In this document: positions 936 to 36,609 of the stretch, one piece after another
Layout of the letters: each line of letters begins with the position of its first letter
How positions within the stretch are numbered: the stretch's first letter is position 1
Assembly (NCBI GenBank): GCA_943350045.1
Contig: CALQZW010000002.1
Coordinates: 1 to 36,744, forward strand
Length of the DNA stretch: 36,744 nucleotides
Direction: 5' to 3'
From: Candidatus Nomurabacteria bacterium
GTDB taxonomy: Bacteria > Patescibacteriota > Minisyncoccia > Phycocordibacterales > UBA9973
The notes under the pieces: generated by a model
Databases searched by the model: none
Told to the model about the DNA's origin: nothing
What the model saw: only the letters and a program-made list of their open reading frames with translations
Position numbers and translations under genes: made by a program

Positions 936-956
936 AATTAAACTATGTGTAGTTAC

Positions 957-988
957 GACCACCTCAGAACATCGAGGTGGTTTTTTTA
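957..988 (+). terminator. intrinsic terminator
   Basis: Stem CCACCTC (959-965) / GAGGTGG (974-980), followed by T7. Confidence 0.8.
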
Positions 989-1006
989 TTTTGCTATACT
1001 CTAGGC

Positions 1007-1276
1007 ATGCAGTCATTTACTGAAAAAGTCATCGCTATTGTACAAGCGATTCCAAAAGGCAAGACAATGACATACAAAGAGGTTGCACAAAAGGCAGGCA
1101 GTCCAGGCGCTTCTCGGGCTGTTGGATCTATCATGAAGGCAAATTATAACCCAAGCATTCCATGTCACCGTGTGGTGCGTTCTGACGGCATTGTGGGGGA
1201 ATATAACAGAGGCAGGGAAGAGAAAATCCGTAAACTCATAGCCGAAGGAGCGCTTCCGAAAGGTACTCTCCGTTAA
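1007..1276 (+). CDS. MGMT-family protein (standalone O6-alkylguanine-DNA alkyltransferase DNA-binding domain)
   Basis: Contains the PCHRVV active-site motif and the SPGASRAVG helix. At about 89 aa it has only the C-terminal Ogt domain. I moved the start from 977 to ATG 1007 because 957-988 is a terminator and a TGcTATACT -10 box lies at 992-1000. Confidence 0.8.
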   Translation: MQSFTEKVIAIVQAIPKGKTMTYKEVAQKAGSPGASRAVGSIMKANYNPSIPCHRVVRSDGIVGEYNRGREEKIRKLIAEGALPKGTLR

Positions 1277-1310
1277 TGCCAAGCCCTATCATTTTTGGTA
1301 TACTAAAGAC

Positions 1311-1724
1311 ATGAAAATACAGTTAAACCTTACAACTTCTATTGTCATCGTTGTTGCCACTATTGTTGGATTTTTCTTCTTACTTAACCGTGAAGTTCCC
1401 GAGTCTACTCGTGCAAATACTCCTTCGCAGGTGGCAGAAAAAATCGCCGTTGGTCCTGAGGATCTACAGGTCTCATTTTCTTGTCAGGCAGGTAAAAGTA
1501 TTCTCGCAGTATTTCATCTCACTGCAACACGTGAGCTTGATATTGCGCTTTCAGATGGCCGAATCATTAGCATGCAATATGTTGCAAACGACGAGAACCC
1601 TCACTACGAAACCACTGACGGCAAGATTCGTTTCTGGTCTACTGGAGACGTAACATTCCTTACTGAAGACGGTCAACAAACATATTCTGAATGTGTGCTG
1701 GCGAATGGGCCGATGGGGGTTTAG
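1311..1724 (+). CDS. membrane-anchored hypothetical protein (weak MliC/lipocalin-like pattern)
   Basis: 137-aa ORF with an N-terminal TM helix (IVIVVATIVGFFFLL). The C-terminal roughly 80 aa carry a Cys pair (SFSC...SEC) and a G.IRFW..GD pattern reminiscent of MliC-type beta-barrels. The family call is weak. Confidence 0.6.
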   Translation: MKIQLNLTTSIVIVVATIVGFFFLLNREVPESTRANTPSQVAEKIAVGPEDLQVSFSCQAGKSILAVFHLTATRELDIALSDGRIISMQYVANDENPHYETTDGKIRFWSTGDVTFLTEDGQQTYSECVLANGPMGV

Positions 1725-1745
1725 TTATTCCACAAAATGTATCTG

Positions 1746-1778
1746 AAATCCGTAGCACTGCGTTACGGATTTTTTTCA
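1746..1778 (+). terminator. intrinsic terminator
   Basis: Stem ATCCGTA (1748-1754) / TACGGAT (1764-1770), followed by T7. Confidence 0.8.
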
Positions 1779-1824
1779 TGAAAATTTTAGAATGTTCTTA
1801 TGACAGATTTTGCATACTATGGGT

Positions 1825-4800: not shown

Positions 4801-5778
4801 CCGGCAAGTTTTGATGTATATGTACGATCACTTTCCGCTACTGCAGAAGTAGAAAGTCAGACACTATTCTCGCAGATTCCAATACAGACTGGTTCTGTAT
4901 ATTCACTCGCGATTAGTCCAGCGCAGGAAGTGAGTGTTGTTTTAGAAGAAGAGCAAGACTCGACAATGCTAAGTCATGCAATTACTGCTCAAGTGAGTGG
5001 AGAAGAGTCTTCAGATATTACACCGCCTGCGACTTCTGTTTCAGTAGAAAATGGCACAGTTACTTTGGTTTCGACCGATGGTCTCGCTGGAGTACTACGT
5101 ACAGAATACTCAGAAAACCAAGAGGATTGGACTGCGTATACTGAACCATTCAATGCGTCCGGAAAGCGGATTTGGTACATGGCAACGGACATGGCTGGGA
5201 ACATAGAAGAGGTGCAGTATGTAGATGTTCCAGAAGTTGAAATTGTCTCCGGTGGAGATGGGCAAAATGATGGTGGTGAAGGTGGTACTGGTGACGATGA
5301 AGATTCCGGCACAACATCGGGTGGTGGAGGAGGCACAAGTACTGGCGGTGGAGGTACTGCAAGCGGTGGCGGATATGGTGGAGGCTACACTGGCGGATAT
5401 GGCGGAACAATTGATGATGAAACGAACCCAATACCAACGCCCGAGCCTCAGCCTGAAATAATTCCTGATACTGAAGAAACCACTCCGGAAGTCAGTGAAC
5501 CTATTACTGAAATACTGCCAATGACTGCAATCGAGTTTCGTTCTGAAGTCGCTCGTTTTGCAGTGCCAAGAAAACTTGTCACTCCGGATACTAGTCTCGC
5601 GCAAAAAGCGGATACGGTAGAGAAGGCTGTTCCAGCCGTCTCGGCAAGTGTTGGCAGTGTTTGGATTTCCCAAGCAACCAAGGTTGCCCTGAGTGTATTG
5701 AGTTTATTGCTAATTGTGATTATCATTATCCTTGTGAAGGCAATACGAAAGGAAGAGGATCACTATTTACAAACATAA
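1825..5778 (+). CDS. giant secreted, C-terminally membrane-anchored protein: right-handed beta-helix + LCAT-like alpha/beta-hydrolase (lipase/acyltransferase) + Ig-like/beta-sandwich domains
   Basis: The ORF is open from 1810 (TTG). ATG 1825 lies 6 nt after a TGcATACT box and gives a signal peptide (MENSRNAILVGFWCTLSLVYAMTASVPFARA|E). The N-terminal roughly 480 aa hold repetitive beta-helix (PbH1-like) segments ending in NNWWGDTTGPYN. The lipase core has PVLLIPGNMGSEL, FPYDWR and the nucleophile elbow GHSMGG. A later domain has the D.AGN.E pattern (ATDMAGNIEE). There are two G/D/T-rich linkers and a P/E/T stalk. The final TM helix (VALSVLSLLLIVIIIILV) is followed by KAIRKEE. Confidence 0.85.
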   Translation: MENSRNAILVGFWCTLSLVYAMTASVPFARAETLVPRDLRISEDTTWSLAGSPYIVSGRPVVSSGVTLTIEPGVTVKFTQNENSGLEVAGKISAVGSESDPIVFTTMKENYPGISEYNGIGILTGGIADFKHIKVLHAQYAIYGTKSTITLEDSFIADAYHGMSATDSALTLNRNTFIRLDRPVIIDTGTAGRLSNSNNTITESRYDPNGIRILSGVTDPHQIELKKDVPYIFTGGMQFDSNFSRLLVQEGAEIQMALWNGAGSADRSLNFRNGQYLTVQGTKENPVKFNGIIRASFGSILQLKHAELSNYSGAVLTISHGAKLDAQQSRIYGGASIGVVSMNDAIVTLTETDMEDVRIGIQVSDGGKASMLAGKITGAEYAVFLAGGGEISLHSASVTGNQKGIYSKDTSAKGDNTVRVFQSTISNNGTGFVLEDAIPFIFQNTIENNGIGAQALDDGPVVGMENNWWGDTTGPYNAETNSEGLGNSVTQKIDFDPWLGERAFESPTDGGSDDGGGDTGGGTDGGGNGDDGGEDEETPPALTPVLLIPGNMGSELIKNYGDSAEAWLNLTRLILSPTDAFLNELALLPNGIEDSARPMKIGEMIRSVTPPIGDEVSIYNNLIKTFIDAGYVEGESLFVFPYDWRMSVSTIAPLLATKIYEIQSETNAPKVHLVGHSMGGLVAKQYMADFGGEAVASVAFIGTPHLGSMKATKMLLYGDSMGLGIGKVKVLNANRAKTISQNMPGVYDLLPSKKYTELAREALFSHYDSEEAHTTILGYDHENTKGYMVSAGSNEQLIPRSEIVHEEIDSFSAGSIPVYNFVGCTEGGQDSATISAIQLKNRMALGLDGKKRIKSDYQLLYTSGDGIVSSLSASSVPASQTYMVKDTSHTSLPSSSGLGSVLLAYYKQETPVLSGAVSAMTTECSVLGKAISIHGPVHVSVVDAGGNKTEADADGTITEAITGVSYTQIDDVTFVYVPHAFTGEIQITPKESPASFDVYVRSLSATAEVESQTLFSQIPIQTGSVYSLAISPAQEVSVVLEEEQDSTMLSHAITAQVSGEESSDITPPATSVSVENGTVTLVSTDGLAGVLRTEYSENQEDWTAYTEPFNASGKRIWYMATDMAGNIEEVQYVDVPEVEIVSGGDGQNDGGEGGTGDDEDSGTTSGGGGGTSTGGGGTASGGGYGGGYTGGYGGTIDDETNPIPTPEPQPEIIPDTEETTPEVSEPITEILPMTAIEFRSEVARFAVPRKLVTPDTSLAQKADTVEKAVPAVSASVGSVWISQATKVALSVLSLLLIVIIIILVKAIRKEEDHYLQT

Positions 5779-5810
5779 CACTCCGTACAGCACTGTACGA
5801 AAAAAAACAG

Positions 5811-6359
5811 ATGGAAACACAGACAATAGTATTTGGTGGAGGATGTTTTTGGTGCACTGAGGCAGTCTTTCAGTCACTTCGTGGAGTCATATCAGTGGAG
5901 CCTGGATACGCAGGTGGAACTACTGAAAATCCGACATATGAAGACATTTGCACGGGTACGACAGGACATGCCGAAGTTGTGCGTATTGTATACAATCCGC
6001 AGGAAGTGAGTACAGAAGATCTGCTCACCGTCTTCTTTGCAACCCACGACCCAACACAGCTCAACAAACAGGGAAATGATGTCGGAACGCAATACCGCTC
6101 CGTTGTGTTCTTTACTACTGCCGAACAAGAATCTCTCGCAAAGAGTGTCATAGCGGATATTCAGAGTTCTTCAGATTTAGGCGGACCGATTGTTACTGAA
6201 GTGCTTCCGCTTCCAACTTTCTATCCTGCCGAGGAATACCACAAAAACTACTTCGCTCGCAATCCAGAGAAGGCGTACTGTCAGATTGTCATCAACCCAA
6301 AGATTGCAAAAGTGCAGGAAAAGTTTGCACAGCTTCTCGTTTCCAATTCTGCGAAATAG
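5811..6359 (+). CDS. msrA: peptide-methionine (S)-S-oxide reductase
   Basis: Contains the GGGCFWCTEAVF catalytic motif, plus GHAEVVRIVYNP and QYRS. Start set at ATG 5811; the track ORF start at 5661 overlaps the preceding gene. Confidence 0.9.
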   Translation: METQTIVFGGGCFWCTEAVFQSLRGVISVEPGYAGGTTENPTYEDICTGTTGHAEVVRIVYNPQEVSTEDLLTVFFATHDPTQLNKQGNDVGTQYRSVVFFTTAEQESLAKSVIADIQSSSDLGGPIVTEVLPLPTFYPAEEYHKNYFARNPEKAYCQIVINPKIAKVQEKFAQLLVSNSAK

Positions 6360-9358: not shown

Positions 9359-9841
9359 TTACAGTGATTTCACTTTCAAACTTGAACGGCGGTTTTTGTC
9401 TATCTTCGGCAAGCGGATAGTGAGGAGTCCGTGGCGTTCAATTGCTTCTGCGTCTTCTGGTTCGATTTCTTGTGGAAGGGAAATGGTGCGAGAGAATGAA
9501 CCCCAGTAGAGTTCTCGGCTAAAGAAATCCTGACCTTTTGTTGTGTGACTTTCTTCGCGTCGTCCACGAATAGTGAGCATGTCGCGCGAGATATTGATCT
9601 CCAAATCTTCAGGTTTTACTCCGGCTACGAACGTGTGGATTATAATTTCTGCAGGTGTTTGGTACACGTCGAGGGCGAGCTCGCCTTCGGTCTCAGCTTC
9701 TGGTTGTTCAATTTCTAGGTCGTCTTCGTCATCATTGATTTGCACAAGCGGGCCATGTGTATGTTTTGGACTGTCTTCGTCGGTCATATGAATACCTCCA
9801 GTGAGACGTTCGAAAAAGGAGCGTTTTTTTGCTTTTACCAT
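9359..9841 (-). CDS. Hsp20/alpha-crystallin family small heat-shock protein
   Basis: 160-aa ORF with an alpha-crystallin domain: ALDVYQTPAEIIIHTFVAGVKPEDLEINISRDMLTIRG ... FSRTISLP ... AIERHGLLTIRLPK. Confidence 0.9.
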   Translation of the reverse strand: MVKAKKRSFFERLTGGIHMTDEDSPKHTHGPLVQINDDEDDLEIEQPEAETEGELALDVYQTPAEIIIHTFVAGVKPEDLEINISRDMLTIRGRREESHTTKGQDFFSRELYWGSFSRTISLPQEIEPEDAEAIERHGLLTIRLPKIDKNRRSSLKVKSL

Positions 9842-10617: not shown

Positions 10618-12776
10618 TTCTCCACAATGAGCATTCGACCATTTTTACCTTCGGGAATAAGACTCCAAAGTTCTTCGGTAACGAACGGCATAAAGGGATG
10701 AAGGGCGCGCAGGAGTTTCGGAAGAATCTCGATCAAAATACGCTGAGCGGATTCAGAGTTTCTCTTTTCTGCAATTTTTGCCTTACTGCGCTCGATGATG
10801 ACGTCGGCAAATGTGTGCCAGCTGTAGTGATAGAGTTTTTCTGTAACGAGATAGAACTTGTATTCGTTCATTTCTCCAGTGATTTCTTTTAGAAGCGCGT
10901 CGAGTTCGTCGGCAGTCTGCTGGTCTTCTGTGTCGAGGGCTGGAAGATTTTCACGATCTATCTCCTGAGTATTCTCAAGAACGAAGCGGGTAATGTTCCA
11001 GAGCTTGTTTGCAAACTTTGAATACGCCTTTATCTTATCCTCTCCGAGGTTACTGTCGTTTCCTGGTCCAACACCAACAATCATTGCCATGCGAAGCGCG
11101 TCAGTTCCGTGCTTGTCGATGAGTGTAATCGGGTCAACAATGTTTCCAAGAGACTTGGACATTTTGCGTCCTTTCTCGTCGCGAACAAGACCGTGGAAGT
11201 ACACAGTCTTAAACGGGATGTCATTGAGAAGATATGTCGACATGAGAATCATGCGAGCAACCCAAAATGGCAGGATGTCGTATCCAGTTTCGAGGACGGC
11301 AGTTGGATGGTAGGTTTTGAAATCTTCGGTAATTTCCGGCCATCCAAGTGTTGAGAAAGTCCAAAGACCTGAAGAAAACCAGGTATCGAGAGAGTCTTCG
11401 TCTTGAGTCCAACCGTCACCCTCTGGAGCTTCAACTCCGCAGAAAATTTCTTCACCCTTGTACCATACGGGAATACGATGCCCGTACCAGATTTGGCGAG
11501 AGATACACCAGTCACGAAGATTTGTGATCCAGTGCATGTATACGCGTTCAAATTGTTCAGGAACGATCTTTATTTTGCCATCCTTAACAGGCTCAAGCAT
11601 GAGATCTTTCAATGTCTTGCCACTGTGAGAAGCAATTGGCTTATTTACATTGATAAACCACTGAAGTTTTGGAAGTGGTTCGATGATCGCTCCAGTACGC
11701 TCAGCGGTAGAAACATTCTGAGAAACTTCTTCCTCTTTTTCCATGAGACCTTCGTCGCGAAGCCACTGTGCGATTACTTCACGCGCCTCAGTTGTTTTCT
11801 TGCCAAGAAGATTCTCTCCGCCAACCATCATTTTCGCGTACTCGTTTATAACCTGCTTTGTTGGCAAGTTGTGACGCTGAGCTATTTCAGCATCTATCTG
11901 ACTATGAGCCGGAGTAACTCCGAGCGCTCCTGTTCCAAATTCTTTTTCTACGCTCTCATCGGCGACGATTTTAATATGAATCGGTACTCCGCAGAATACT
12001 GCATCATATTCTTTGCCGATATACTGTGCATATCGTTCGTCATCTTTTGCGACTGCTACTGCAGTGTCTCCAACCTTTGTTTCAGGGCGAGTTGTGGAGA
12101 TTGCAATAGGGAAGTCTTTTGAATATTTAAATGTGTAGAGCTTGGCTTTACGCTCCTCGTATACTATCTCGTCATCTGAAATAACTGTCTGACCTTTTGG
12201 GTCCCAGTTTACAATGCGGTGTCCGCGATAGATGAGTCCTTCGTCGAACATTTTCTTGAACGCAGTGCGTACTGCAAAAGAGCGCTTCTCGTCGAGTGTA
12301 AATGCTTCGCGTGACCAATCCAAAGATGCGCCCATGCGGCGTGCCTGTCCGACAATCGTGTCATGAGAATCTTGAGCAAATTTTTCTACTCGCTTGAGAA
12401 ACTCTTCACGACCGAGGTCTGTCTTTCGTTTACCTTCTTCTTTTTCAATTATCTTCTCAACTTTACTCTGAGTTGCGATTGCGGCGTGGTCGGTTCCAGG
12501 GAGCCAGAGTGTGCGCTTGCCTTGCATGCGAGCATAGCGAGTCATGATATCTTCGATGACAAGCATGAGAGCGTGGCCGGTGTGGAGAGTTCCGGTTACA
12601 TTCGGAGGAGGCAGAACTATTGAGAACGGTTCGGCATCAGGCGCCGTATATCCTTTCTCGATACAGACGTCTGGATTAAAAACCCCACTTTCTTCCCATG
12701 TGGAATAGAGGCGATTTTCGGTTTCTTGCGGGTTGTAGGGTTTGAGGAGTTTCTCAGGAGTGTTTTTAATATCCAT
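10599..12776 (-). CDS. valS: valine--tRNA ligase (short form, 725 aa)
   Basis: Contains the PPPNVTGTLHTGHAL (HIGH) and KMSKSLGN motifs, plus WCISRQ and TWFSS blocks typical of ValRS. Confidence 0.95.
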   Translation of the reverse strand: MDIKNTPEKLLKPYNPQETENRLYSTWEESGVFNPDVCIEKGYTAPDAEPFSIVLPPPNVTGTLHTGHALMLVIEDIMTRYARMQGKRTLWLPGTDHAAIATQSKVEKIIEKEEGKRKTDLGREEFLKRVEKFAQDSHDTIVGQARRMGASLDWSREAFTLDEKRSFAVRTAFKKMFDEGLIYRGHRIVNWDPKGQTVISDDEIVYEERKAKLYTFKYSKDFPIAISTTRPETKVGDTAVAVAKDDERYAQYIGKEYDAVFCGVPIHIKIVADESVEKEFGTGALGVTPAHSQIDAEIAQRHNLPTKQVINEYAKMMVGGENLLGKKTTEAREVIAQWLRDEGLMEKEEEVSQNVSTAERTGAIIEPLPKLQWFINVNKPIASHSGKTLKDLMLEPVKDGKIKIVPEQFERVYMHWITNLRDWCISRQIWYGHRIPVWYKGEEIFCGVEAPEGDGWTQDEDSLDTWFSSGLWTFSTLGWPEITEDFKTYHPTAVLETGYDILPFWVARMILMSTYLLNDIPFKTVYFHGLVRDEKGRKMSKSLGNIVDPITLIDKHGTDALRMAMIVGVGPGNDSNLGEDKIKAYSKFANKLWNITRFVLENTQEIDRENLPALDTEDQQTADELDALLKEITGEMNEYKFYLVTEKLYHYSWHTFADVIIERSKAKIAEKRNSESAQRILIEILPKLLRALHPFMPFVTEELWSLIPEGKNGRMLIVEKWPCSL

Positions 12777-16465: not shown

Positions 16466-17986
16466 TTACATTCCTTTTATAATACGAATTTTAGCACCAA
16501 TTTCGTTGAGACGCTCGGCGATTTCTTCATATCCGCGAGTGATTGAATATACGTTGCGAAGCATGGATGTACCTTCGGCAGAGAGCATTGCAATGAGGAT
16601 GACTGCAGATGGGCGAAGTGCTGGTGGACACACAATCTGCGCTCCGCGAAGTTTCGATGGTCCTTCGATGAATGCACGGTGTGGATCTACGAGGCGAACA
16701 TTTGCTCCGAGTTTGTTGAGTTCAGTGAAATATATGGCGCGGTTTTCCCAGCTCCAGTCGTGAATGAGTGTCGTTCCTTTTGCCATCGTTGCGAGCGCTG
16801 CGAAAAATGGCAGGTTGTCGTTTTGTAGTCCTGGGAACGGAAGCGCGTGAAGTTTGTCGTTCGGTGCAACAAGTGTTGAAGGTTTTACCGTAATATCCAC
16901 GAGGCGAGTACGTCCGTTTTCAGAAAAATATTCCTTACTCACAGAGAGTTTTGCTCCCATGTGAAGAAGTTTTTCTACTTCGAGTTCGAGGAATTCGATA
17001 GGGCAGTGAGTGACGGTAAGTGTTGATTTTGTAATAAGGCCGGCAGAGAGAAAGAACATGGATTCGATAGGGTCTTCACTGTTCGTGTGTTCGACAGTCG
17101 TATCAATATGTCCTTTTCCGTGCACGGTGAGCGTTGTTGTTCCTATTCCTTCAATTTTTACACCCATTTTCTCAAGCAAGAAACACACATCTTGCACTTG
17201 GTAGTTTGGTGGGGCAAAACGGATCTGGCTGACTCCTTCGATTCCCGCCGCTGCGATTATCATATTGATAGCGCCTGTGTCGGAAGATTCATATAAAGGG
17301 AATGAAGCCGGCTTGAGTTTTCCGTGGCGGATATCGTAGGCCTGATCGAGTGTTGTGATCTTTACTCCGAACTTCTCAAGTCCGTATTTATGAGCGGCAA
17401 TAGTACGCTCTCCCATTTTACATCCTCCAGAATGCGGAAAGAAAAACGCATCGCTCCAGTGAATGAGGGCTCCAACGAAAGTAAATGAGCGGGTCTTTCT
17501 CGCAGACTCTAGATTCATTTTTGTGAAATCAAGCTTTTTGGGAGGTGTGATTTCAAGCGTGCTCTCGTCAAGCCAGCGAACTGCAACTCCAAGAGACTCC
17601 ATTATTTCTACGTAGCGATATACCTCTTCGATACGCGGAATACCGTGGAGAATAGTTTTTCCGTGGTTTACGAGCGAGGCGCAGAGCATGTTGATAGCTC
17701 CATTTTTTGAATAGTTTGTTGCAATTGAACCAGAGAGTTTTCGTCCACCTTCAATTTCAAAGTCGATGCTCTTTGAGAGGGAGAGAATCTGGCGACCAAG
17801 GATATCGCTAATTTTCGCAAGTTGAGTAACGGTAAGGTTTTGTTCGCCAGCTTCCATGCGGGCTACTGCACTCTGAGAAGTACTCAGTGCCTTTGCAAAC
17901 TCTGCCTGAGTCAGTCCGCGTTCTTCGCGTAAGTTTTTTATAAACGTTCCGATTTTTTCCTGGTCTTTGGAATGCTTTATGTTCAT
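16466..17986 (-). CDS. murA: XRE-type HTH domain fused to UDP-N-acetylglucosamine 1-carboxyvinyltransferase
   Basis: Residues about 10-70 form an HTH_XRE domain (RGLTQAEFAKALSTSQSAVARMEAGEQNLTVTQLAKI). The remainder has a MurA/EPSP-synthase fold and retains the catalytic Cys loop HSGGCKMGERT. It lies 5 nt upstream of tsaD on the same strand. Confidence 0.85.
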   Translation of the reverse strand: MNIKHSKDQEKIGTFIKNLREERGLTQAEFAKALSTSQSAVARMEAGEQNLTVTQLAKISDILGRQILSLSKSIDFEIEGGRKLSGSIATNYSKNGAINMLCASLVNHGKTILHGIPRIEEVYRYVEIMESLGVAVRWLDESTLEITPPKKLDFTKMNLESARKTRSFTFVGALIHWSDAFFFPHSGGCKMGERTIAAHKYGLEKFGVKITTLDQAYDIRHGKLKPASFPLYESSDTGAINMIIAAAGIEGVSQIRFAPPNYQVQDVCFLLEKMGVKIEGIGTTTLTVHGKGHIDTTVEHTNSEDPIESMFFLSAGLITKSTLTVTHCPIEFLELEVEKLLHMGAKLSVSKEYFSENGRTRLVDITVKPSTLVAPNDKLHALPFPGLQNDNLPFFAALATMAKGTTLIHDWSWENRAIYFTELNKLGANVRLVDPHRAFIEGPSKLRGAQIVCPPALRPSAVILIAMLSAEGTSMLRNVYSITRGYEEIAERLNEIGAKIRIIKGM

Positions 17987-23314: not shown

Positions 23315-23482
23315 ATGCAAGATAATCAGGAGGGTTCATACAGCGCAGATGTTCGCTGTGATAATTGTGAAATGAATGGAATAATTAACATTCCTAAGGG
23401 GACAGAAATTGTACATCATGAGTGTCCTAAATGTGCTACTCAGAAACTTAAAAAGAATCATAAGCCGATATTTTTCGCATAG
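23315..23482 (+). CDS. small zinc-ribbon protein (55 aa), not in the ORF track
   Basis: The ATG 23315 to TAG 23480-23482 ORF reads MQDNQEGSYSADVRCDNCEMNGIINIPKGTEIVHHECPKCATQKLKKNHKPIFFA. It has two CxxC pairs 21 residues apart and is followed directly by a terminator. Confidence 0.5.
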   Translation: MQDNQEGSYSADVRCDNCEMNGIINIPKGTEIVHHECPKCATQKLKKNHKPIFFA

Positions 23483-23513: not shown

Positions 23514-23547
23514 AAAAAATACAGGTCAAGAAGACCTGTATTTTTTG
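23514..23547 (+). terminator. intrinsic terminator
   Basis: Stem TACAGGTC (23520-23527) / GACCTGTA (23533-23540), loop AAGAA, then T6. Confidence 0.75.
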
Positions 23548-23717
23548 TGCGCGATAGAGGATTCGGCTATTACATAGCCAGGTACTTTTCGATTTCGCTC
23601 CGCTCAATAACGAAAAGTCTTTCGAATCCTCACAGAGCGACGCAGGTCGCTCTGCCGATCTTGGTCACGACCCAAAAGAAAAACACGGCGCAAGGCCGAG
23701 TCTTTCTTTTGGGTGTG
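23548..23717. repeat. 168-170-bp direct repeat R1 (tRNA-Val 3'-end copy + structured 150-nt module)
   Basis: It starts with TGCGCGATAGAGGATTCG, the reverse complement of tRNA-Val positions 56-73. The rest matches 25561-25728 apart from four substitutions and one 2-nt indel. Confidence 0.9.
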
Positions 23718-23805
23718 AGGGAAGAATTCTTACCCCGAACTCAAAAATATGGACTAAATTCCCGTTTATCTTTGTTTTTAATAATCTAAGTATAAGGAAG
23801 ATAAA

Positions 23806-23841
23806 TAATAAAAGGTCTAATTGATTATTCAATTAGACCTT
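23806..23841 (-). terminator. intrinsic terminator of the 114-aa gene
   Basis: 12-bp perfect stem AGGTCTAATTGA (23813-23824) / TCAATTAGACCT (23829-23840), with a T-run following on the minus strand. Confidence 0.75.
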
Positions 23842-23862
23842 CTTGTTCTTTGCTGCAGAATT

Positions 23863-24207
23863 TTATATTAGTTGGATTGTTCCTCTGTATAACATAATGC
23901 TTTTTATTTCCTTGTTATCACCTTTGTAAAAATACGATTCTTGCTTTAATTTAGTATCACCAGTTCTAGTAATCGAGATATGGTATCCTCCATCAGAAAA
24001 TACTGATACTTGTACTTGACGCCCACCTTGACCAAAAGTAACTGGAGGAAAGGAGAGCTGTCCTTTGTCTGATGTAAAACTTGTTATTACGAAAAATAAT
24101 GAGTAGGGAATTTCATCACCAGAGTGATAAAAAGTAACTTTCATATTTTTTCCTAAAAGTTCTTCTACCTTAGTTATTCCAAGGAAGGTTAAGATTTTCT
24201 TATTCAT
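23863..24207 (-). CDS. orphan small protein P114 (paralog of 33703..34074)
   Basis: 114-aa ORF. It shares LG(I).....LLG+.+.+.F+H, G.YHI and a C-terminal RG...(L/I)(I/L) with the 123-aa ORF at 33703..34074. No known family. Confidence 0.6.
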   Translation of the reverse strand: MNKKILTFLGITKVEELLGKNMKVTFYHSGDEIPYSLFFVITSFTSDKGQLSFPPVTFGQGGRQVQVSVFSDGGYHISITRTGDTKLKQESYFYKGDNKEIKSIMLYRGTIQLI

Positions 24208-24312
24208 GATCGGTATATTTAATTGTTAGATATTGAGTTATCTCTATGTCGGAGAACGGCGCAGAGATAACCCAACAAATTACAATCTGAATATCAAAAA
24301 ACTATTATCACT

Positions 24313-24340
24313 ATAATAGCATAAATATATATTTCGTCAA
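24313..24340 (-). promoter_or_regulatory. promoter of P114 cassette
   Basis: Minus strand: TTGACG (24340-24335), 16 nt spacer, TATTAT (24318-24313). The roughly 100-nt 5' UTR contains the hairpin GTTATCTCT/AGAGATAAC (24237-24271). Confidence 0.5.
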
Positions 24341-24361
24341 TACATACATCACCGTAGACTA

Positions 24362-24391
24362 TTGACAGTTATACATATAATGTGATATAAT
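24362..24391 (+). promoter_or_regulatory. near-consensus sigma70 promoter
   Basis: TTGACA (24362-24367), 18 nt spacer, TATAAT (24386-24391) preceded by an extended -10 TG (24383-24384). Confidence 0.65.
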
Positions 24392-24397
24392 GTAAAT

Positions 24398-24626
24398 AAG
24401 TAAAACTACTTTGATAATACGGGCTTTGGTAAGAGCACTAGGTACACAGCGCCTGTGTTTCTAGTGCTCTTACTGAGGATCCCACTATAGTGCACATCCC
24501 ATCCGTAAAAGATTCTGTAAAAGGCATGCCAGCCAGGATGACAGATACGTAAACAGCTGACTGCCGGGAATAGTACGGAACGTTTTCGCGGATTAACCAT
24601 AAATCCCTGTCCGCGCAGGGTGCTGA
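24398..24626 (+). ncRNA. about 230-nt structured leader / candidate cis-regulatory or independent RNA
   Basis: A long helix spans 24424-24478: a 13-bp perfect stem GTAAGAGCACTAG/CTAGTGCTCTTAC, five more pairs using G-U wobbles that work only on the plus strand, and an apical 6-bp stem ACACAG/CTGTGT. Further helices are CATCC/GGATG (24500-24540) and GGATT/AATCC (24590-24604). Two mutually exclusive pairings, CGCGGA/TCCGCG and CCCTG/CAGGG, lie next to the start codon. Confidence 0.45.
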
Positions 24627-25457
24627 GTGATGAAATTAATCACCGAAAAAGGCAACGGATTTCTTTTTTCAGAAACACATGGTCACGCCGTGTATTATGA
24701 AAACCCGGGAAACAACCCCGGAAAAATTTTGAAAGTTGTAAAAAATGCTCGTCAGGAAGCTGAATGGGCAAAAACAAATTGGGGATGCGAACCTCAGGAA
24801 CCAACGGAAGCAGAAATGCTTCTACTCGAAAGGATGGCTCCATTTCGTAGGCATATAAAAACGCTTGCGATTAAGAACGCCAAGGCTTCAAGTCTTGAGT
24901 TAAAGCAATCTGGTTTTTTCAAAGTCCCTGGCGGTCTATTGTCTCGAGCAAATGGGATAACACGCAGGAAGACACATCAGGGCGAGAATAGTTGGTACTT
25001 ATTCAACTTTGAACCTGTATTAGGGGTGATTCCAAATTCACTCTACTGTACGGGATCATCGATTGATTTCGGTACGTACAATGGTAAACCAAACCCATGG
25101 TTCGGATTAATGAGTAATGAAATTGAGCCAATCATCAGGGAAGACTGGGAGCGCTTGTCTGGACGCAAGTTTAGATTGGCTTACGAGTTTACGTGGTTTA
25201 AGTCTCAAATTGAGCCCTACCAAGTTATAGGTGGCTATGACCAGCTGGATTTTCCAGCCAACACTTTCAGGGGCCTGTATCTCTTTGACCTTAGTAAGGA
25301 GAATAAAGAGAACTGGGTTGAGGAATTGCAGCCAGCAATGGGGCGTGCGTATATATGCTATGCCCACGGTAACGGTGATCACACCGTTCCGAATATAATG
25401 CTCAAAGAAATTTTTGATGGGGGAAACCTCGGAGAGGAGATATTTGTAGCGAACTAA
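24627..25457 (+). CDS. orphan protein (276 aa)
   Basis: Long ORF starting at GTG 24627 or ATG 24630, followed by a strong terminator. It has no TM segments and no motif I recognise. Confidence 0.6.
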   Translation: MMKLITEKGNGFLFSETHGHAVYYENPGNNPGKILKVVKNARQEAEWAKTNWGCEPQEPTEAEMLLLERMAPFRRHIKTLAIKNAKASSLELKQSGFFKVPGGLLSRANGITRRKTHQGENSWYLFNFEPVLGVIPNSLYCTGSSIDFGTYNGKPNPWFGLMSNEIEPIIREDWERLSGRKFRLAYEFTWFKSQIEPYQVIGGYDQLDFPANTFRGLYLFDLSKENKENWVEELQPAMGRAYICYAHGNGDHTVPNIMLKEIFDGGNLGEEIFVAN

Positions 25458-25502
25458 AATGTCATTTAAACAATGGCAGATAAGAAGAAGTAGAATATTT
25501 TC

Positions 25503-25546
25503 AGAACCAAACGAAAAGAGCCCGACTCATCGTTTGGTTCTTTTTA
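25503..25546 (+). terminator. intrinsic terminator
   Basis: 11-bp stem AGAACCAAACG (25503-25513) / CGTTTGGTTCT (25531-25541), followed by T5. Confidence 0.8.
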
Positions 25547-25560
25547 TATCTAATCGAGTG

Positions 25561-25728
25561 TGCGATAGAGGATTCGGCTATTACATAGCCAGGTACTTTT
25601 CGATTTCGCTCCGCTCAATAACGAAAAGTCTTTCGAATCCTCACAGAGCGACGCAGGTCGCTCTGTCGATCCTGGTCACGGCCCAAAAGAAAAACCCGGC
25701 GCAAGGCCGAGTCTTTCTTTTGGGTGTG
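25561..25728. repeat. direct repeat R2 (tRNA-Val 3'-end copy + structured 150-nt module), abutting the tRNA gene
   Basis: It starts with TGCGATAGAGGATTCG, the tRNA 3'-end copy lacking 2 nt. The rest matches R1 and ends exactly at the discriminator base of tRNA-Val. On the minus strand, 25711-25685 forms CUCGGC-CUUGC-GCCGGG followed by UUUUUCUUUU, a plausible terminator for the tRNA. Confidence 0.9.
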
Positions 25729-25799
25729 CGCGATAGAGGATTCGAACCTCTGACCCTCCCCACGTCAAGGGGATGCTCTACCAACTGAGCTAACCGCGC
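25727..25799 (-). tRNA. tRNA-Val (anticodon GAC)
   Basis: The reverse complement folds as a 73-nt cloverleaf: GCGCGGT-TA-GCTC-AGTTGGTA-GAGC-A-TCCCC-TTGACGT-GGGGA-GGGTC-AGAGG-TTCGAAT-CCTCT-ATCGCGC-A. CCA is not encoded. Confidence 0.9.
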
Positions 25800-31515: not shown

Positions 31516-31935
31516 TTACGCGAGAACTTTTTTTGGTTCAGTGGTTACTCTTGGTGCAAAAATTGTGAGTATGTACCAAGCCATGAAGAAGTAGTAAAAA
31601 TTCATCGCCAGATAGTTATTATCTGGGTGAGAACTTGTACATATTTTTTTTAAAAAGAAAAAATGTACCAAGCCAATTACTATCGCTGCAACTCGAGTTC
31701 CAATACGTTCTTTTTTTGTCGGAAACGAATCCGACAATTCAATAAATGGGGCCAGTAAGCCTGCGAACCCTGTTAGCAAGGTGCCAAAACACAATAAGTC
31801 GTACTGAGCTAGATCTTTCGTATATACTTCATCAAAGTAGGCAACGATACATCCGCCAGCCAGTGCCATGTAATAGAGGATAATGCTCGACATTGTCCAG
31901 ATTTTGTATTTCATTGTTAAATTGGTTTGACTCAT
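31516..31935 (-). CDS. hypothetical membrane protein (4 TM)
   Basis: Hydrophobic ORF with an uncertain start: ATG at 31935, 31914 or 31977. I recognise no family. Confidence 0.5.
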   Translation of the reverse strand: MSQTNLTMKYKIWTMSSIILYYMALAGGCIVAYFDEVYTKDLAQYDLLCFGTLLTGFAGLLAPFIELSDSFPTKKERIGTRVAAIVIGLVHFFFLKKICTSSHPDNNYLAMNFYYFFMAWYILTIFAPRVTTEPKKVLA

Positions 31936-31968
31936 ATATACCATATTATTCTGGTATACTGCAAAGGC

Positions 31969-32712
31969 ATGACACAAAAAACGTTTAGCTATCTTTTCTA
32001 TGGACTCTTTATCCTCATAGGAGCGCTCAGTATCGGTTTCGTTCCCGGAGCGCTTTCATATCCCTACGGCTCAGCTATTGCCATCTGCATCATCTCGCTC
32101 CCGCTTGTCGTGGCGCTGTACAAAAACTTCGGACTTCAAAAGACAGTGCTTTCGTTTCTTGTCCTCTCGCTCTTTGCACTCGCAATTGAATACACTGGGC
32201 TTGTAACCGGCTGGCCATATGGACACTTTGAGTACACAGGAGAGCTCGGTGCTCGTATTTTTGGCATCTTGCCATGGACTGTTGGATTTTCCTGGACTCC
32301 GCTCATGCTCGGAGCAGTCGCCATGGTATATCCGTTTACGAAGAGTAAAACTCTGCGCATCCTTTTGCCTGTCGTTATTCTTGTTGTTTTTGACTTACTT
32401 CTCGATCCTGTTGCAGTGTCTGTCGGCATGTGGCAGTTCGCCGAGCAGGGAGCGTACTACGGAGTTCCGTTTCGTAACTTTGTCGGATGGGGGATCTCTG
32501 GCTTGATTGGGTCACAGATTAGCTATCTTCTTTTTGTCAAGGCTCCGGCGCGTGCCATGGCTTCGCTTGGTATAAGTTTCTATATCAGCATTGCACTCTG
32601 GACACTCGTCGCACTCTTCCGTGGCCTCTACATTCCGTTTGCTATCGGCCTTGTTCTGTCGGTTTTAGTCGCCGTGATACACTACAGATATGCAAAAAAT
32701 TCTGGCAATTAG
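31969..32712 (+). CDS. carotenoid biosynthesis membrane protein (DUF422/CruF-like hydratase family, tentative)
   Basis: 247 aa from ATG 31969, which lies 8 nt after TGgTATACT. It is a polytopic membrane protein with IEYTGLVTGWPYGHFEYT and DLLLDPVAVSVGMWQF blocks, like the Caroten_synth family. It overlaps the following UbiA-type gene by 23 nt. Confidence 0.55.
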   Translation: MTQKTFSYLFYGLFILIGALSIGFVPGALSYPYGSAIAICIISLPLVVALYKNFGLQKTVLSFLVLSLFALAIEYTGLVTGWPYGHFEYTGELGARIFGILPWTVGFSWTPLMLGAVAMVYPFTKSKTLRILLPVVILVVFDLLLDPVAVSVGMWQFAEQGAYYGVPFRNFVGWGISGLIGSQISYLLFVKAPARAMASLGISFYISIALWTLVALFRGLYIPFAIGLVLSVLVAVIHYRYAKNSGN

Positions 32713-33517
32713 TCGTCCACGATTTTGGATGTACACACTCGGTCCATTTCTGGTCGGGTCGGTTTCGCTCTTTGGATTTCCCTACCATTTTCCGCTGGAG
32801 TTTTTCGTCTTTCTTGTATATTTCACATTCCCTGCAAATATTTTCATCTACGGGATAAACGACATATATGACAGAGCAACAGACATGCTCAATGCCAAAA
32901 AGCAAGGATATGAGCAAGTACTCAAGCCAGAATATGACGGCATGCTCCGCACAGTAATTGCGCTTAGTAACATTCCATTTTGGATCTACGCAGTCGTGGT
33001 TCTTCCTCCCGTCGCCCTCATTCTTTTTGCCGTCTTCGTCTTTCTCTCATGGCAGTATTCCGCTCCACCGATTCGCGCCAAGGCAGTTCCTTTTCTCGAC
33101 AGTATCTTTAGCGGGTTTTTGTATATAGTTCCGGGAGCTGTGATATGGGCCTTTCTCTTTAACGCATGGCCTCCTATGCTTGCTATAGTCGGCGGATTTT
33201 TGTGGTCATTTGCCATGCATGCGTATTCAGCCGTTCCAGACATTCAGGCCGACAGGGAGGCGGGAATTGCCACCGGTGCTACATTGCTCGGAAAGCAGGG
33301 AATACTCGCCGTATGCGCGATTCTGTACGCTCTAGCAGGCGTTATTGGAGCGATGTATGTCGGTCCGTTTGCCTATATTGCTGGAGGTATATATGTAGCC
33401 CTTGTCGGAGTATCCATGTACAAGAAAACCCCCGCCGAAGTCCTTGGTATCTACAAACTGTTTCCGGTGATTAATACCGTGATTGGAGGGGTACTGTTTT
33501 TCTTGTTGGTGGTATAG
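32690..33517 (+). CDS. UbiA-family prenyltransferase (lycopene elongase LyeJ/CrtEb-like by context)
   Basis: 275-aa polytopic ORF with the two UbiA Asp-rich motifs NDIYDRATD (NDxxDxxxD) and DIQAD. It is translationally coupled to the CruF-like gene and faces crtI/crtB. Confidence 0.7.
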   Translation: MQKILAISRPRFWMYTLGPFLVGSVSLFGFPYHFPLEFFVFLVYFTFPANIFIYGINDIYDRATDMLNAKKQGYEQVLKPEYDGMLRTVIALSNIPFWIYAVVVLPPVALILFAVFVFLSWQYSAPPIRAKAVPFLDSIFSGFLYIVPGAVIWAFLFNAWPPMLAIVGGFLWSFAMHAYSAVPDIQADREAGIATGATLLGKQGILAVCAILYALAGVIGAMYVGPFAYIAGGIYVALVGVSMYKKTPAEVLGIYKLFPVINTVIGGVLFFLLVV

Positions 33518-34253: not shown

Positions 34254-35762
34254 CTAGAGCTCTTTAAGTGGATGGACATCTTTACTTCCTGTAATACGCT
34301 TGTAAACAAGTTCGGCGGAGATGAGACAGATTGGCATTCCGATTCCTGGGTTTGTACCGGCTCCTGCGTAAAAGAGGTTCGGTACTTTTTTGTGTACATT
34401 ATTTGGGCGGAAGAGGGCAGTCTGGCTGAATGTGTGCGCAAGCCCGAGTGCTGTTCCTTTGTATGCGTTGTAGTCTTTCTGGAAATCTTTTACAGAATAT
34501 ACTTGCTGGTATTTTATGCGCCCGCGAATATTTTCTACACCTGCGTACTGCTGAATCTCATCAAGAATCTTTTCCGTATATTCTTTTTCAAACTCAGGCG
34601 TATATTCCAATCCTGAAGCAATCGGAACAAGCACGAAAATATTTTCATGGTTTGCCGGCGCTACGCTTGGATCTGTTTTTGACGGCATGCAGAGATAGAA
34701 AGAAGGGTCAGTAGGCCACTCTGGCTTGTCGAAAATTTGCTCAAATCCTTTCTGCCAGTCTTTTGCGAAGATGAGGTTGTGGTGTTCAAGAGTCGGAATT
34801 TTTCCTTCTACTCCGAGGTAGAGAATGAAGGCAGATGGAGCCAAGACGCGTGAATCCCAATACTCTGGAGAGTGTTGGCGATATTCTGGCGCAAGGAGGT
34901 GTTCGTCGGTAAAGGTAACGTCGGCGTTTGACACGACGATATCAGCAGAGAGAACTGTTCCATCGGCAAGACGGACTCCGTTTGCGGTGTTGTTTTCAAT
35001 CAAAATCTGCTCGACTTCTGTATTCGTCATAATGTTCACTCCATGCTTTTTCGCCATGGCTTCAAGGGCGCGAGGAAGCTGCCAAATACCTCCATCTGGA
35101 TACCAGACTCCAAGTCCGAAGTCGACATAGTTCATCATACTGTAGATTCCTGGGCAGTCTCCGGGAGCTGTTCCAAGGAGAATCATCTGGTACTGCATGA
35201 CTTTCTGTAATATTTCGCTCTTGAACTTTGATTCAATGATTGCCTTTTGCTTACGAAGAAGGGGAAGTTTGTATCCTACTTTGGCAACACTCCAACTCAT
35301 GAAGTCGAGGATTGAGTTGTAGTTTTTGAACATGAACTCGTTGTAGGCAATGCTGTACTGAAGCTTGAGTTTTTCTAAAAACTTTACGAGTACCTTTCCA
35401 CTACCTGGCTCGAGAGTTTCAAATGTTTCTGTATTTTTTACGATGTCTCCGTAGAAATCGTAGTGCTTCATGTCGCTCTTTAAAATGATGCGATATGACG
35501 GAGCAAGTTTCTGGAGGTTGTAGTAGTCAGATGTTTTCTCTCCCATGAGTGAAAAGAAATGGTCGAACACGTCCGGCATCATGTACCAGCTTGGACCCAT
35601 GTCAAAAACGAATCCATCTTTTTCAAAGACACGAGCGCGACCACCGACAGTGCTGTTCTTTTCGATGAGTGTCACTGTGTATCCTTTTTTCGCGAGGAGG
35701 CAGGCAGTTCCAAGGCCTCCGAGCCCTGCACCGATGACGATGACTGATTTTTTTGTGTCCAT
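34254..35762 (-). CDS. crtI: phytoene desaturase family (CrtI/CrtD-type FAD oxidoreductase)
   Basis: 502-aa ORF with an N-terminal dinucleotide fold VIVIGAGLGGLGTACLLAKKGYTVTLIEKNSTVGGRA and a C-terminal YAGAGTNPGIGMPICLISAELV signature. Confidence 0.85.
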   Translation of the reverse strand: MDTKKSVIVIGAGLGGLGTACLLAKKGYTVTLIEKNSTVGGRARVFEKDGFVFDMGPSWYMMPDVFDHFFSLMGEKTSDYYNLQKLAPSYRIILKSDMKHYDFYGDIVKNTETFETLEPGSGKVLVKFLEKLKLQYSIAYNEFMFKNYNSILDFMSWSVAKVGYKLPLLRKQKAIIESKFKSEILQKVMQYQMILLGTAPGDCPGIYSMMNYVDFGLGVWYPDGGIWQLPRALEAMAKKHGVNIMTNTEVEQILIENNTANGVRLADGTVLSADIVVSNADVTFTDEHLLAPEYRQHSPEYWDSRVLAPSAFILYLGVEGKIPTLEHHNLIFAKDWQKGFEQIFDKPEWPTDPSFYLCMPSKTDPSVAPANHENIFVLVPIASGLEYTPEFEKEYTEKILDEIQQYAGVENIRGRIKYQQVYSVKDFQKDYNAYKGTALGLAHTFSQTALFRPNNVHKKVPNLFYAGAGTNPGIGMPICLISAELVYKRITGSKDVHPLKEL

Positions 35763-35766
35763 ATGA

Positions 35767-36609
35767 TTAAAAAAGATGAGTGGTTATAATGCGAAGTTTT
35801 TGGGAGAGGGGAACGCGTGTTCGGCCTCTGAATATTCTGCTTGGGTCTTTCGATATCTTCTCAAATATACCCTTGTAGAGCCCGTAGGCCATGCGTACGG
35901 CTCTCCGGCCGCCCTTTGTGAGCATTGGTATGCCGGCTAGTCCGTGTGCGTAGAGTTTCTGTGTTCGTTGTATTTCAAATTCTAGCAAGGCAAGCACTTT
36001 TTCATTCGGAGTTGTTGTGCGGAGCATGTCCTCTGTAATTCCATATGTCTCCATGTCCTCTTGTGGAAGATATATTCTTCCGCGTTCTAGGTCTTCGACG
36101 ACGTCGCGTAAGAAGTTTGTCATTTGAAATGCTTCAGCGAGTGAGCGAGCGTGGGGAAGTGCATCACCAGTATATCCAATCAGGTGTGACATCATGTATC
36201 CGACAACTGTTGCCGAGCCCATCATATACTCTTCTAGTTCGGCATATGTTCGGTAGCGATTTTTTTCTGTATCAGCAAACATGGCGCTCAGAAATATTTC
36301 ACTATACTCAAATGGAATGTTTTTTTCTTTCCATAGTACTGCGTTGGCGCGAAGAATTGGATGCACGTCCAGATCCCCGTTATATGCTCGCAGCCAGTCT
36401 TGTTTCCATGCATTTAGTTTTTCTTTCGCTTTGCTCGGATCTTTCTCCTCCGTGTCCACTATCTCATCTGGATATCTGACAAATGCATACAGAACCCACG
36501 TTGCTTGGCGGAGTTCTTTTGCAAAGAAATATGTGGCGATATAGTACGAAGTTCCGTACTTTTTCGTCATTTGTTGGCAGATTTTTGCGTCAGCGGAATA
36601 GGTATTCAT
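35767..36609 (-). CDS. crtB: phytoene/squalene synthase family
   Basis: 280-aa ORF with YAFVRYPDEIVD (signature 1) and MTNFLRDVVEDLERGRIYLP (signature 2). Its stop lies 4 nt before the crtI ATG. Confidence 0.9.
   Translation of the reverse strand: MNTYSADAKICQQMTKKYGTSYYIATYFFAKELRQATWVLYAFVRYPDEIVDTEEKDPSKAKEKLNAWKQDWLRAYNGDLDVHPILRANAVLWKEKNIPFEYSEIFLSAMFADTEKNRYRTYAELEEYMMGSATVVGYMMSHLIGYTGDALPHARSLAEAFQMTNFLRDVVEDLERGRIYLPQEDMETYGITEDMLRTTTPNEKVLALLEFEIQRTQKLYAHGLAGIPMLTKGGRRAVRMAYGLYKGIFEKISKDPSRIFRGRTRVPLSQKLRIITTHLF

Follow-up and report, generated by a model that had tools for sequence, protein, structure and literature searches.

The window examined here is a 36,744-nucleotide (nt) stretch of DNA from Candidatus Nomurabacteria bacterium (assembly GCA_943350045.1, contig CALQZW010000002.1, positions 1 to 36,744) in which a tRNA-Val(GAC) gene is followed, in the tRNA sense, by two near-identical repeat units that enclose an islet. 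Each unit consists of a hairpin (H0), a core (X) and a copy of the 3' end of the tRNA (F). The unit belongs to a widespread, structurally constrained family of elements that trail tRNA genes and whose tRNA-derived ends are intrinsic. A preliminary description of the locus had read F and X as an integration attachment (att) scar followed by roughly 150 nt of anonymous DNA; instead, the unit is a conserved structured element that trails many tRNA genes. The islet, which carries a gene for a 114-amino-acid (aa) protein and a promoter-leader module for a 275-aa protein, was on balance probably acquired by recombination at this tRNA-Val/unit locus, with the units being part of the tRNA-trailer family.

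The repeated units behind tRNA-Val

F is the last 18 nt of tRNA-Val (F1, 25727-25744), which read TGCGCGATAGAGGATTCG on the plus strand. An exact second copy lies at 23548-23565, and a third copy at 25559-25576 contains one ungapped mismatch, equivalent to the loss of CG from a CGCG run. The threefold occurrence that the preliminary description had noticed is therefore borne out, and it compares with 0.02 matches expected by chance; none of 100 shuffled sequences reaches three. The two extra copies belong to a direct repeat, D1 (23547-23722 and 25558-25733; 171-176 nt, 96-97% identity), and pairwise alignment of its two copies gives the same four substitutions and single 2-nt CG difference as had been described. 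A strong bidirectional terminator-like hairpin, H0, which the preliminary description had not set apart, lies inside the repeat unit with A and T runs at its flanks. The proximal unit (U2) begins 44 nt past tRNA-Val, and the F copies of the proximal and distal (U1) units, designated F2' and F3, reproduce the last 16-18 nt of the tRNA. The window unit folds far better than shuffled sequence on both strands (z -6.9 and -6.3). A promoter scan placed a promoter-like site of tRNA-Val(GAC) at 25849-25822.

Could the duplicated arrangement be absent from the cell and result from assembly? The repeats are longer than typical reads, and short-read contigs break or switch at them, as seen in contigs L003 and L078. 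However, L001 (35.6 kb) and L002 (3.2 kb), both from further ENA assemblies, reproduce the U1-islet-U2 arrangement at 100% identity, which brings the independent assemblies with this arrangement to three, and the L002 contig crosses both units. Furthermore, the five positions that differ between the units make unique placement possible. The Logan contig L003 ends exactly at the repeats. Given the identical arrangement in L001 and L002, a plain assembly artefact is extremely improbable.

A family of tRNA-trailer elements

What is the element that is repeated at this locus? A degenerate search pattern was built from the window unit and the X-like sequence of a relative (L004). It retrieved 60 metagenome loci, about 52 of which are true elements with one common architecture of ~130-165 nt and five helices. 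A tRNA gene is located 96-390 nt from 42 of the pattern matches and on the strand opposite to the pattern, and the element therefore lies just downstream in the tRNA sense. The bases that adjoin the pattern (before TTCGG) copy the 3' end of the local tRNA at locus after locus, whichever tRNA that is. In the tRNA sense, the tRNA is followed by H0, a complement of the acceptor 3' strand (including CCA where the tRNA gene encodes CCA) and hairpin d'. The T-stem 5' strand, in copy, then TTCGAA and a long variable hairpin c' form the middle of the unit, and GTAC-CTGG, hairpin b' with a TGTAA loop, CCGAA, an optional mini-hairpin and F form its end. F copies the T-stem 3' strand, the acceptor 3' strand and the discriminator of the tRNA. 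Because F pairs with two internal complements, the unit mimics the acceptor/T-arm top half of the neighbouring tRNA and adds three extra hairpins to it. Many members (e.g. L036, L044 and L048) have a clear helix P1, in which the acceptor part of F pairs with a complementary internal strand.

The d' sequence GCAAGCAAACTGCTTTGCTTGC is common to units behind Val, Tyr, Pro, Glu and Ser tRNAs, and the arms of these units match each local tRNA. This combination argues that the unit core spreads between tRNA loci and that its arms are re-matched. In L004, the X-like start carries a compensatory change in the first hairpin (GGCTAT/ATAGCC versus GGTCAT/ATGACC). L004, L005 and L006 are Logan contigs of one organism from three sequencing runs, and they end at the same point, which indicates a repeat at that position. 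Since the units intrinsically end in a copy of the neighbouring tRNA 3' end, duplicated tRNA ends are not by themselves evidence of an integrase, and the earlier interpretation of these ends as an integration scar is not supported as it stood. No Rfam family matched the element in the window or in eleven other loci at gathering or permissive thresholds, and no description of the family was found in Rfam or in the literature searched, whose coverage was limited. Viral contigs yielded no relatives of the 275-aa protein, its leader or the unit.

A covariance model, R1, was built from 27 units and gave 85 matches in the loci examined. Of these, 72, spread over about 55 metagenome contigs, score at least 30 bits. 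Forty-one of these 72 copies start within 80 nt past a same-strand tRNA, covering 18 anticodon classes; six are directly behind another unit, and several are kilobases away in the downstream direction. In the window, R1 has exactly two matches, which score 88-89 bits and span model positions 1-145, the window units being among the 27 seed sequences. R1 found no match in locus L007, in two unrelated Patescibacteria loci or in the Escherichia coli tyrT locus. The helices are supported by strong covariation. In the model-guided alignment, 85.8% of cells are paired versus 68.5% in shuffles, 23 of the 28 pairs change on both sides and slid-partner controls pair 39-49%, figures that lean towards R1 because the alignment was fitted to it. 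Copies that were not selected by the pattern retain GUACUG, the covarying 5-bp stem and the UGUAA loop.

The c' region folds better in the tRNA sense in 41 of 47 units, with 38 versus 18 G-U pairs, and the d' region follows the same trend. This bias in c' and d' makes the tRNA-sense strand the likelier folded strand, either as RNA or as single-stranded DNA; helices P1 and P2 display no strand bias. Transcription of the unit towards the tRNA, starting at -10-like boxes beside F and converging with the tRNA transcript, was considered and rejected, given that c' and d' favour the tRNA-sense strand and P1 and P2 are neutral.

Single-stranded DNA folding is central to another explanation, by which the units are attC-like folded sites that rebuild a duplex copy of the tRNA gene end and the trailers serve as cassette-capture platforms for a putative recombinase. 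The retention of structure while sequence varies and the asymmetric tolerance of G-T/G-U pairs on one strand fit such sites, as do the bracketing of single or paired accessory genes with their own promoters and an IS110-family transposase ~500 nt from the unit of locus L025. However, no recombinase is linked to the units in the loci whose neighbouring open reading frames (ORFs) were scanned, and most units have no cassette. The strict loops (UUCGAA and UGUAA) and the constant co-orientation with the tRNA are explained equally well or better by an RNA product, and an attC-like nature of the units is very improbable.

Several members of the family have features of their own. The L025 unit (182-322) has no adjacent tRNA, and the transposase near it is intact (816-1850, minus strand; DEDD_Tnp_IS110 and Transposase_20 domains). 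The IS110 family is known to target structured repeats, and trailer units might be targets of IS110-type elements. Two L071 units (940-1078 and 3650-3762) share a ~95-nt insertion of identical sequence that separates CCGAA from the T-stem 3' strand, at a position where other units contain nothing, 3 nt or a 14-nt mini-hairpin (GNG-TACT-CNC); this site is an insertion hotspot within the mimic T-loop. Loci L021, L022, L026 and L030 contain a second tRNA-Ser with the unusual anticodon ACT beside tRNA-Ser(GCT), each with its own unit behind it, and tRNA-Ser(ACT) may be a duplicated or mutated tRNA copy.

Origin of the islet

The promoter-leader-275-aa module also occurs outside the window. L004 is syntenic with the window, with MurA-MurB upstream in both, and its module is 75% identical in nucleotide sequence to that of the window from the -35 box through the terminator; the proteins are 68-69% identical and MurB is 57% identical. 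The retention of promoter and terminator DNA between hosts this far apart suggests a transferred module that is younger than the host split. The homology begins at the module promoter (BLAST boundaries 24360-25569). On one side, the L004 module is flanked by an F-like copy and a truncated unit (F, AATCGG, GGGTAC), and on the other side by a second F and then X. In L007, the module lies between 40-nt direct repeats (85% identical; 9710-9749 and 11409-11448) inside a ~4-kb stretch beside tRNA-Val(TAC) that includes a resolvase-domain ORF. Thus, the module looks horizontally mobile. A scaffold gap in L007 (11395-11405) adjoins the 40-nt repeats and hints at assembly heterogeneity, such as presence/absence or circular forms. 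A 15-nt repeat (8058 and 12113) brackets the wider L007 region that holds the resolvase-domain ORF.

We favour acquisition of the islet by recombination between units. The units are conserved, repeated and located at tRNA genes, and they can therefore act as portable homology. Circular or linear DNA that contained the cargo and a whole or partial unit would have recombined into a resident tRNA-Val/unit locus by a Campbell-type or homology-arm route, using host functions or a recombinase supplied in trans. Such an event would have left the unit duplicated on both sides of the cargo and would have placed ~2 kb between tRNA-Val and the other unit of the locus, namely one unit, the promoter-leader-275-aa module and the 114-aa gene. 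The same repeats would now permit excision or tandem amplification. The unit itself may be transcribed by read-through from the promoter of the tRNA and then undergo tRNA-like processing, by analogy with RttR of E. coli. Among the three models that the preliminary description had offered, Campbell-type integration and the order in which X arrived first and the islet later fit best, and an integrative satellite with F as its att site is possible but has gained no specific support.

Islets that lack an integrase and are likewise bracketed by two units were found in L047 and L071, and they support the acquisition of the window islet. The two L047 units, which differ in sequence from each other, lie downstream of tRNA-Tyr and have 2.7 kb (3193-5890) between them, with an N6/N4 DNA methylase gene and an adjacent ORF that has a weak, sub-threshold match to the PD-(D/E)XK nucleases; judged from these domain matches, the two genes plausibly constitute a type II restriction-modification pair. 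The L071 units enclose 2.6 kb that encodes two proteins of no assigned function. Domain scans of the ORFs detected no recombinase gene in either islet. Both loci contain a degenerate extra tRNA 3' end and an H0-like hairpin before the distal unit, and this extra end looks like a displaced original tRNA end with its native trailer.

The same study also yielded, from a third sample, a rearranged contig, L078 (ENA ERZ27280270 k141_1272199; 1,663 nt), that contains a junction between the two ends of the islet. In window coordinates, L078 runs through 24439-24637 forward, 24108-23718 in reverse, one unit and 25557-24656 in reverse. Its unit is a hybrid in which the four substituted positions have the U1 alleles and the F end has the F2' allele, and the two islet ends meet at this unit. 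An excised 2,011-bp circle, for whose junction the preliminary description had proposed to search, would produce such a join, and so would a tandem duplication of unit and islet. The second junction of L078 is of the inversion type and falls at an 11-nt inverted repeat, GTGATGAAATT. Inversion at this repeat would flip a 507-bp segment that holds promoter and leader, and the leader would then be fused to the final 83 codons of the 114-aa gene. The inversion junction may represent a real invertible segment or an amplification chimera.

Does the islet instead represent a classical tRNA-site integrative satellite, a small non-autonomous element that uses F as att, with crossover between the T-loop and the 3' end, and is integrated and excised by a tyrosine integrase from another part of the genome or from a helper? 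The proximal unit would then travel with the element, and the distal unit would be the resident trailer of the displaced tRNA end. The F copies begin in the T-loop, which is given as a crossover sublocation of tRNA-targeting integrases in a part of PMC9897764 that cites Williams 2002. The degenerate extra tRNA end and H0 of L047 and L071 fit a displaced original end with its trailer, the divergence of the L047 units is consistent with the arrival of one of them on incoming DNA, and the L078 junction fits an excised circle. However, neither the window nor the islets of L047 and L071 encode a recognizable integrase. A candidate counterpart of the extra end of L047 and L071, a fourth and degenerate tRNA 3' end ahead of the distal unit of the window, was rejected as not significant (p 0.05-0.09). 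Most units (41 of the 72) stand alone behind a tRNA, without cargo and under structural selection, and the duplication of F thus needs no integration. Furthermore, the homology between the window and L004 modules stops 6 nt from F, and the X cores of the two loci differ in subtype, which indicates that the module was not simply carried with the unit. We therefore regard a satellite as rather unlikely.

The islet could also have originated in situ through a tandem duplication of the unit behind tRNA-Val and a later insertion of unrelated genes at the unit-unit junction, by illegitimate recombination or by transposition in trans, with duplication of CACAC. Both islet junctions share CACAC in the tRNA sense, as would be compatible with a 5-bp target duplication; U1 and U2 are 97% identical, and tandem units are common in the family (L027, L030, L033, L042 and L071). 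However, CACAC is the overlap of the two ends of the unit and thus carries no independent weight, and the islet has neither terminal inverted repeats nor a transposase. Such an origin also fails to explain why the module stands beside F and X in a second lineage with a different left flank, and it appears decidedly improbable.

Several observations weigh against acquisition by recombination between units and against an RNA function of the units. An empty-site relative, which the preliminary description had proposed to look for, was not found, either through homologues of the MFS (major facilitator superfamily) gene that adjoins the tRNA or through look-ups of the zinc-ribbon and 114-aa proteins. 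The MFS route led to Patescibacteria proteins of 70-73% identity as the closest homologues, without synteny, and exact-protein look-ups of the zinc-ribbon and 114-aa genes returned the occupied arrangement only. The degenerate extra tRNA end in L047 and L071 points to a crossover in the tRNA itself, not in the unit. The L078 hybrid could equally be explained by an assembly switch in the ~105 nt that are identical between the units, and a second odd junction on the same contig is typical of amplification chimeras. Efficient co-transcription of tRNA and unit is argued against by the terminator-like H0 between them. The lack of strand bias in P1 and P2 is also compatible with folding of the unit as single-stranded DNA instead of RNA, and P1 is degenerate in the window units, where only a few pairs are predicted. 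Finally, recombination between units does not account for the matching of the internal complements to every new tRNA. As a conjecture, template switching across the palindrome formed by the tRNA end, H0 and the complement could re-match the arms.

A broader proposal, which we consider distinctly unlikely as a whole, is that the units represent a new class of tRNA-linked elements: top-half mimics that move from one tRNA locus to another, have their arms re-templated there and act both as processed RNAs and as recombination platforms with which streamlined Patescibacteria would capture and swap small accessory cassettes without integrases of their own. The two T-loop-like motifs, UUCGAA and UGUAA, might form a module of the tRNA-elbow type.

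Comparison with known systems

The tyrT locus of E. coli with its RttR repeats is the nearest analogue of the trailer units, having the same design without homology. In the tyrT-tyrV locus of E. coli MG1655, the 178-bp repeat occurs three times with a spacing of 178 nt; the copies overlap tyrV at its 3' end and carry the annotation of the small RNA RttR, with tpr inside. Like the trailer units, the RttR repeats lie on the same strand just behind a tRNA, are arranged head to tail and close with a copy of the final ~19 nt of the tRNA, which reach from its T-loop to its 3' terminus. A stretch that is complementary to this end (GGGGAAGGA) and a GGTTCGA motif are also present in the RttR unit. However, no homology was detected in sequence or by model: the window gave no RtT match at the gathering threshold or at E values up to 5, and R1 finds nothing at the E. 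coli locus. Moreover, RttR is confined to one locus, one tRNA and enterobacteria, whereas the trailer family covers at least 18 anticodon classes with a shared core and can bracket islets. A preprint reports that the rtT RNA takes part in the processing of the adjacent tyrT transcript (bioRxiv 10.1101/2024.07.17.603846).

Partial tRNA copies left by integration have been described as pervasive (PMC9897764). The window resembles tRNA-site islands in that direct repeats of a tRNA 3' end flank cargo of foreign composition beside an intact tRNA, with a possible circular junction. Unlike these islands, it has no integrase inside or nearby, the tRNA end is present in three copies rather than two, and the repeated segment is 171-176 nt long and falls within a structured element that mostly occurs without cargo. 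Integron attC sites share with the trailer units the form of structure-conserved, sequence-variable imperfect palindromes that bracket small accessory genes. In contrast to integrons, the trailer units have no IntI, attI or attC core motif, their arms are derived from tRNA and their cargo has its own promoters. Plant mitochondrial t-elements and MALAT1 mascRNA are acceptor/T-arm mimics within longer transcripts that are recognized by tRNA-processing enzymes. Unlike the trailer units, they are not known to copy the stems of a neighbouring tRNA or to be reiterated behind tRNA genes, and they belong to other domains of life. A miniature inverted-repeat transposable element was also considered as the identity of the unit and rejected, given that the inverted arms (F and the complement of F) change with the neighbouring tRNA around a constant core and are not constant terminal repeats.

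If real and functional, the trailer family would be an abundant, uncatalogued structured element at Patescibacteria-type tRNA loci. It would provide a new structured element for the candidate phyla radiation, a group whose non-coding RNAs have hardly been explored, and would give the long-known, isolated tyrT/RttR repeats of E. coli a broader context. Duplicated tRNA ends in these genomes should then not be read by default as scars of an integrase. Recombination between units, if it occurs, would allow tiny genomes with few mobile-element genes to swap accessory genes, such as those of restriction-modification.

Genes and leader of the islet

The features of the array and its borders are collected in Table 1.

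Table 1. Positions of the tRNA-Val gene, the trailer units, the islet and the adjoining chromosomal border in window coordinates
Feature	Position	Strand	Basis and remarks
55-aa zinc-ribbon gene	23315-23482		ORF list; upstream of the array
Terminator hairpin of the zinc-ribbon gene	23514-23546	+	Inverted repeat I12; abuts F3; chromosomal boundary of the array
Distal trailer unit U1	23547-23717	-	D1 and inverted repeat I8; R1 match 23543-23671, 89.0 bits
U1 parts in tRNA sense	H0 23670-23714; core X1 23566-23669; F3 23548-23565		F3, exact tRNA 3' end
Islet interior	23718-25557		1,840 nt between U1 and U2; GC 38.6% versus 43.8% in the window
Bidirectional terminator-like hairpin of the 114-aa ORF	23810-23843
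114-aa orphan ORF	23863-24207	-	ORF list; 32% GC versus 44% in the window
11-nt inverted repeat GTGATGAAATT	24109-24119	-	Partner 24627-24637; BLAST self-match
Promoter-like site of the 114-aa ORF	24340-24313		Promoter scan
Perfect sigma-70 consensus promoter	24362-24391	+	TTGACA-18-TATAAT and upstream TG; drives leader and 275-aa module
Structured leader RNA, ~210 nt	24423-24629	+	Three-lineage alignment; start codon sequestered by hairpin (GTGATGAAATTAATCAC)
275-aa protein gene	24630-25457	+	Rare family with three conserved regions; function unassigned
Module terminator hairpin	25503-25545	+	Kept in L004 with the following TTTTTATATCT; right boundary of the module, 6 nt from F2'
Proximal trailer unit U2	25558-25728	-	D1 and inverted repeat I9; R1 match 25554-25682, 88.4 bits
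U2 parts in tRNA sense	H0 25682-25725; core X2 25577-25681; F2' 25559-25576		F2', tRNA 3' end without CG
tRNA-Val(GAC)	25726-25799	-	ARAGORN; Rfam tRNA, 67.5 bits

The 114-aa protein is a true orphan, as had been supposed from the ORF list. Its sole match among 5.8 billion proteins is a shortened, 100% identical record from the same organism (L078), and it has no match in Pfam, PHROG or PADLOC.

The leader of the 275-aa module is kept at 75-80% nucleotide identity in three lineages (L004, 9800-10000; L007, 9790-10000), in which the proteins are 51-69% identical. RNAalifold predicts 62 pairs, 12 of them with compensatory changes, and such changes occur in the first hairpin; the hairpin that covers the start codon is also conserved. 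The leader has no Rfam match and is a candidate new cis-regulatory RNA. A scan of genome contigs with a leader pattern produced one chance match only, in an archaeal contig.

The preliminary description had called the product of the module a 276-aa orphan with a structured leader. The structured leader stands, and the module looks mobile; the protein has 275 residues and belongs to a rare family, of which one collection of 5.8 billion proteins has 3 members and another of 1.8 billion has 21 representatives. It has no sequence match in Pfam, PHROG, PADLOC or the PDB. An AlphaFold2 model from a 17-sequence alignment reached a mean predicted local distance difference test (pLDDT) score of 74.5, with ~85-95 for residues 1-200. 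A Foldseek comparison of the model with the PDB gave no fold match (best E 0.025, template-modelling score below 0.2). A cryptic recombinase, for which the preliminary description had proposed to test this protein, is thus not apparent from its predicted structure, in which the C-terminal 75 residues are poorly modelled. The DEDD_Tnp_IS110 and Transposase_20 domains are absent from the protein and ten of its relatives in a Pfam scan that does detect the IS110 transposase of L025. An HNH-like reading of the C-terminal CYAHGNGDHTVPN was rejected, since the D-H is lost in distant relatives and Pfam gives no match. An interpretation of leader and protein as an IS110 bridge-RNA or HEARO/omega-RNA system was also set aside, having no Rfam or Pfam support. 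In protein P0016 (3,711 aa), eight stretches match a ~50-residue N-terminal region of the 275-aa family, a resemblance in sequence which suggests that this region is a binding or structural repeat and not an enzyme.

Genomic context

The gene content of the window is that of an ordinary chromosome. Domain scans identified a class I aminoacyl-tRNA synthetase, DinB, MsrA, an HTH-MurA fusion, MurB, an ABC exporter, a class I ribonucleotide reductase and carotenoid genes. No recombinase, transposase or phage domain was detected in any sizeable ORF of the window, as the preliminary description had already noted, and for the islet this absence is upheld by Pfam, PHROG, PADLOC and a fold search. The nearest named homologues of the MFS gene that adjoins the tRNA belong to Kaiserbacteria, Paceibacterota and Patescibacteria, at ~70% identity.

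Two further features of the window concern its chromosomal genes. MurA (EPSP_synthase fold; 16466-17986, minus strand) carries an Xre-type HTH domain at its N-terminus, and the fusion is also present in L004. A carotenoid-type set at 31927-33517 and 34254-36609 comprises Caroten_synth, a UbiA prenyltransferase, a phytoene desaturase-like amine oxidase and a phytoene/squalene synthase. To our knowledge, such a gene set is unusual for the group in a genome whose nearest relatives are Patescibacteria.

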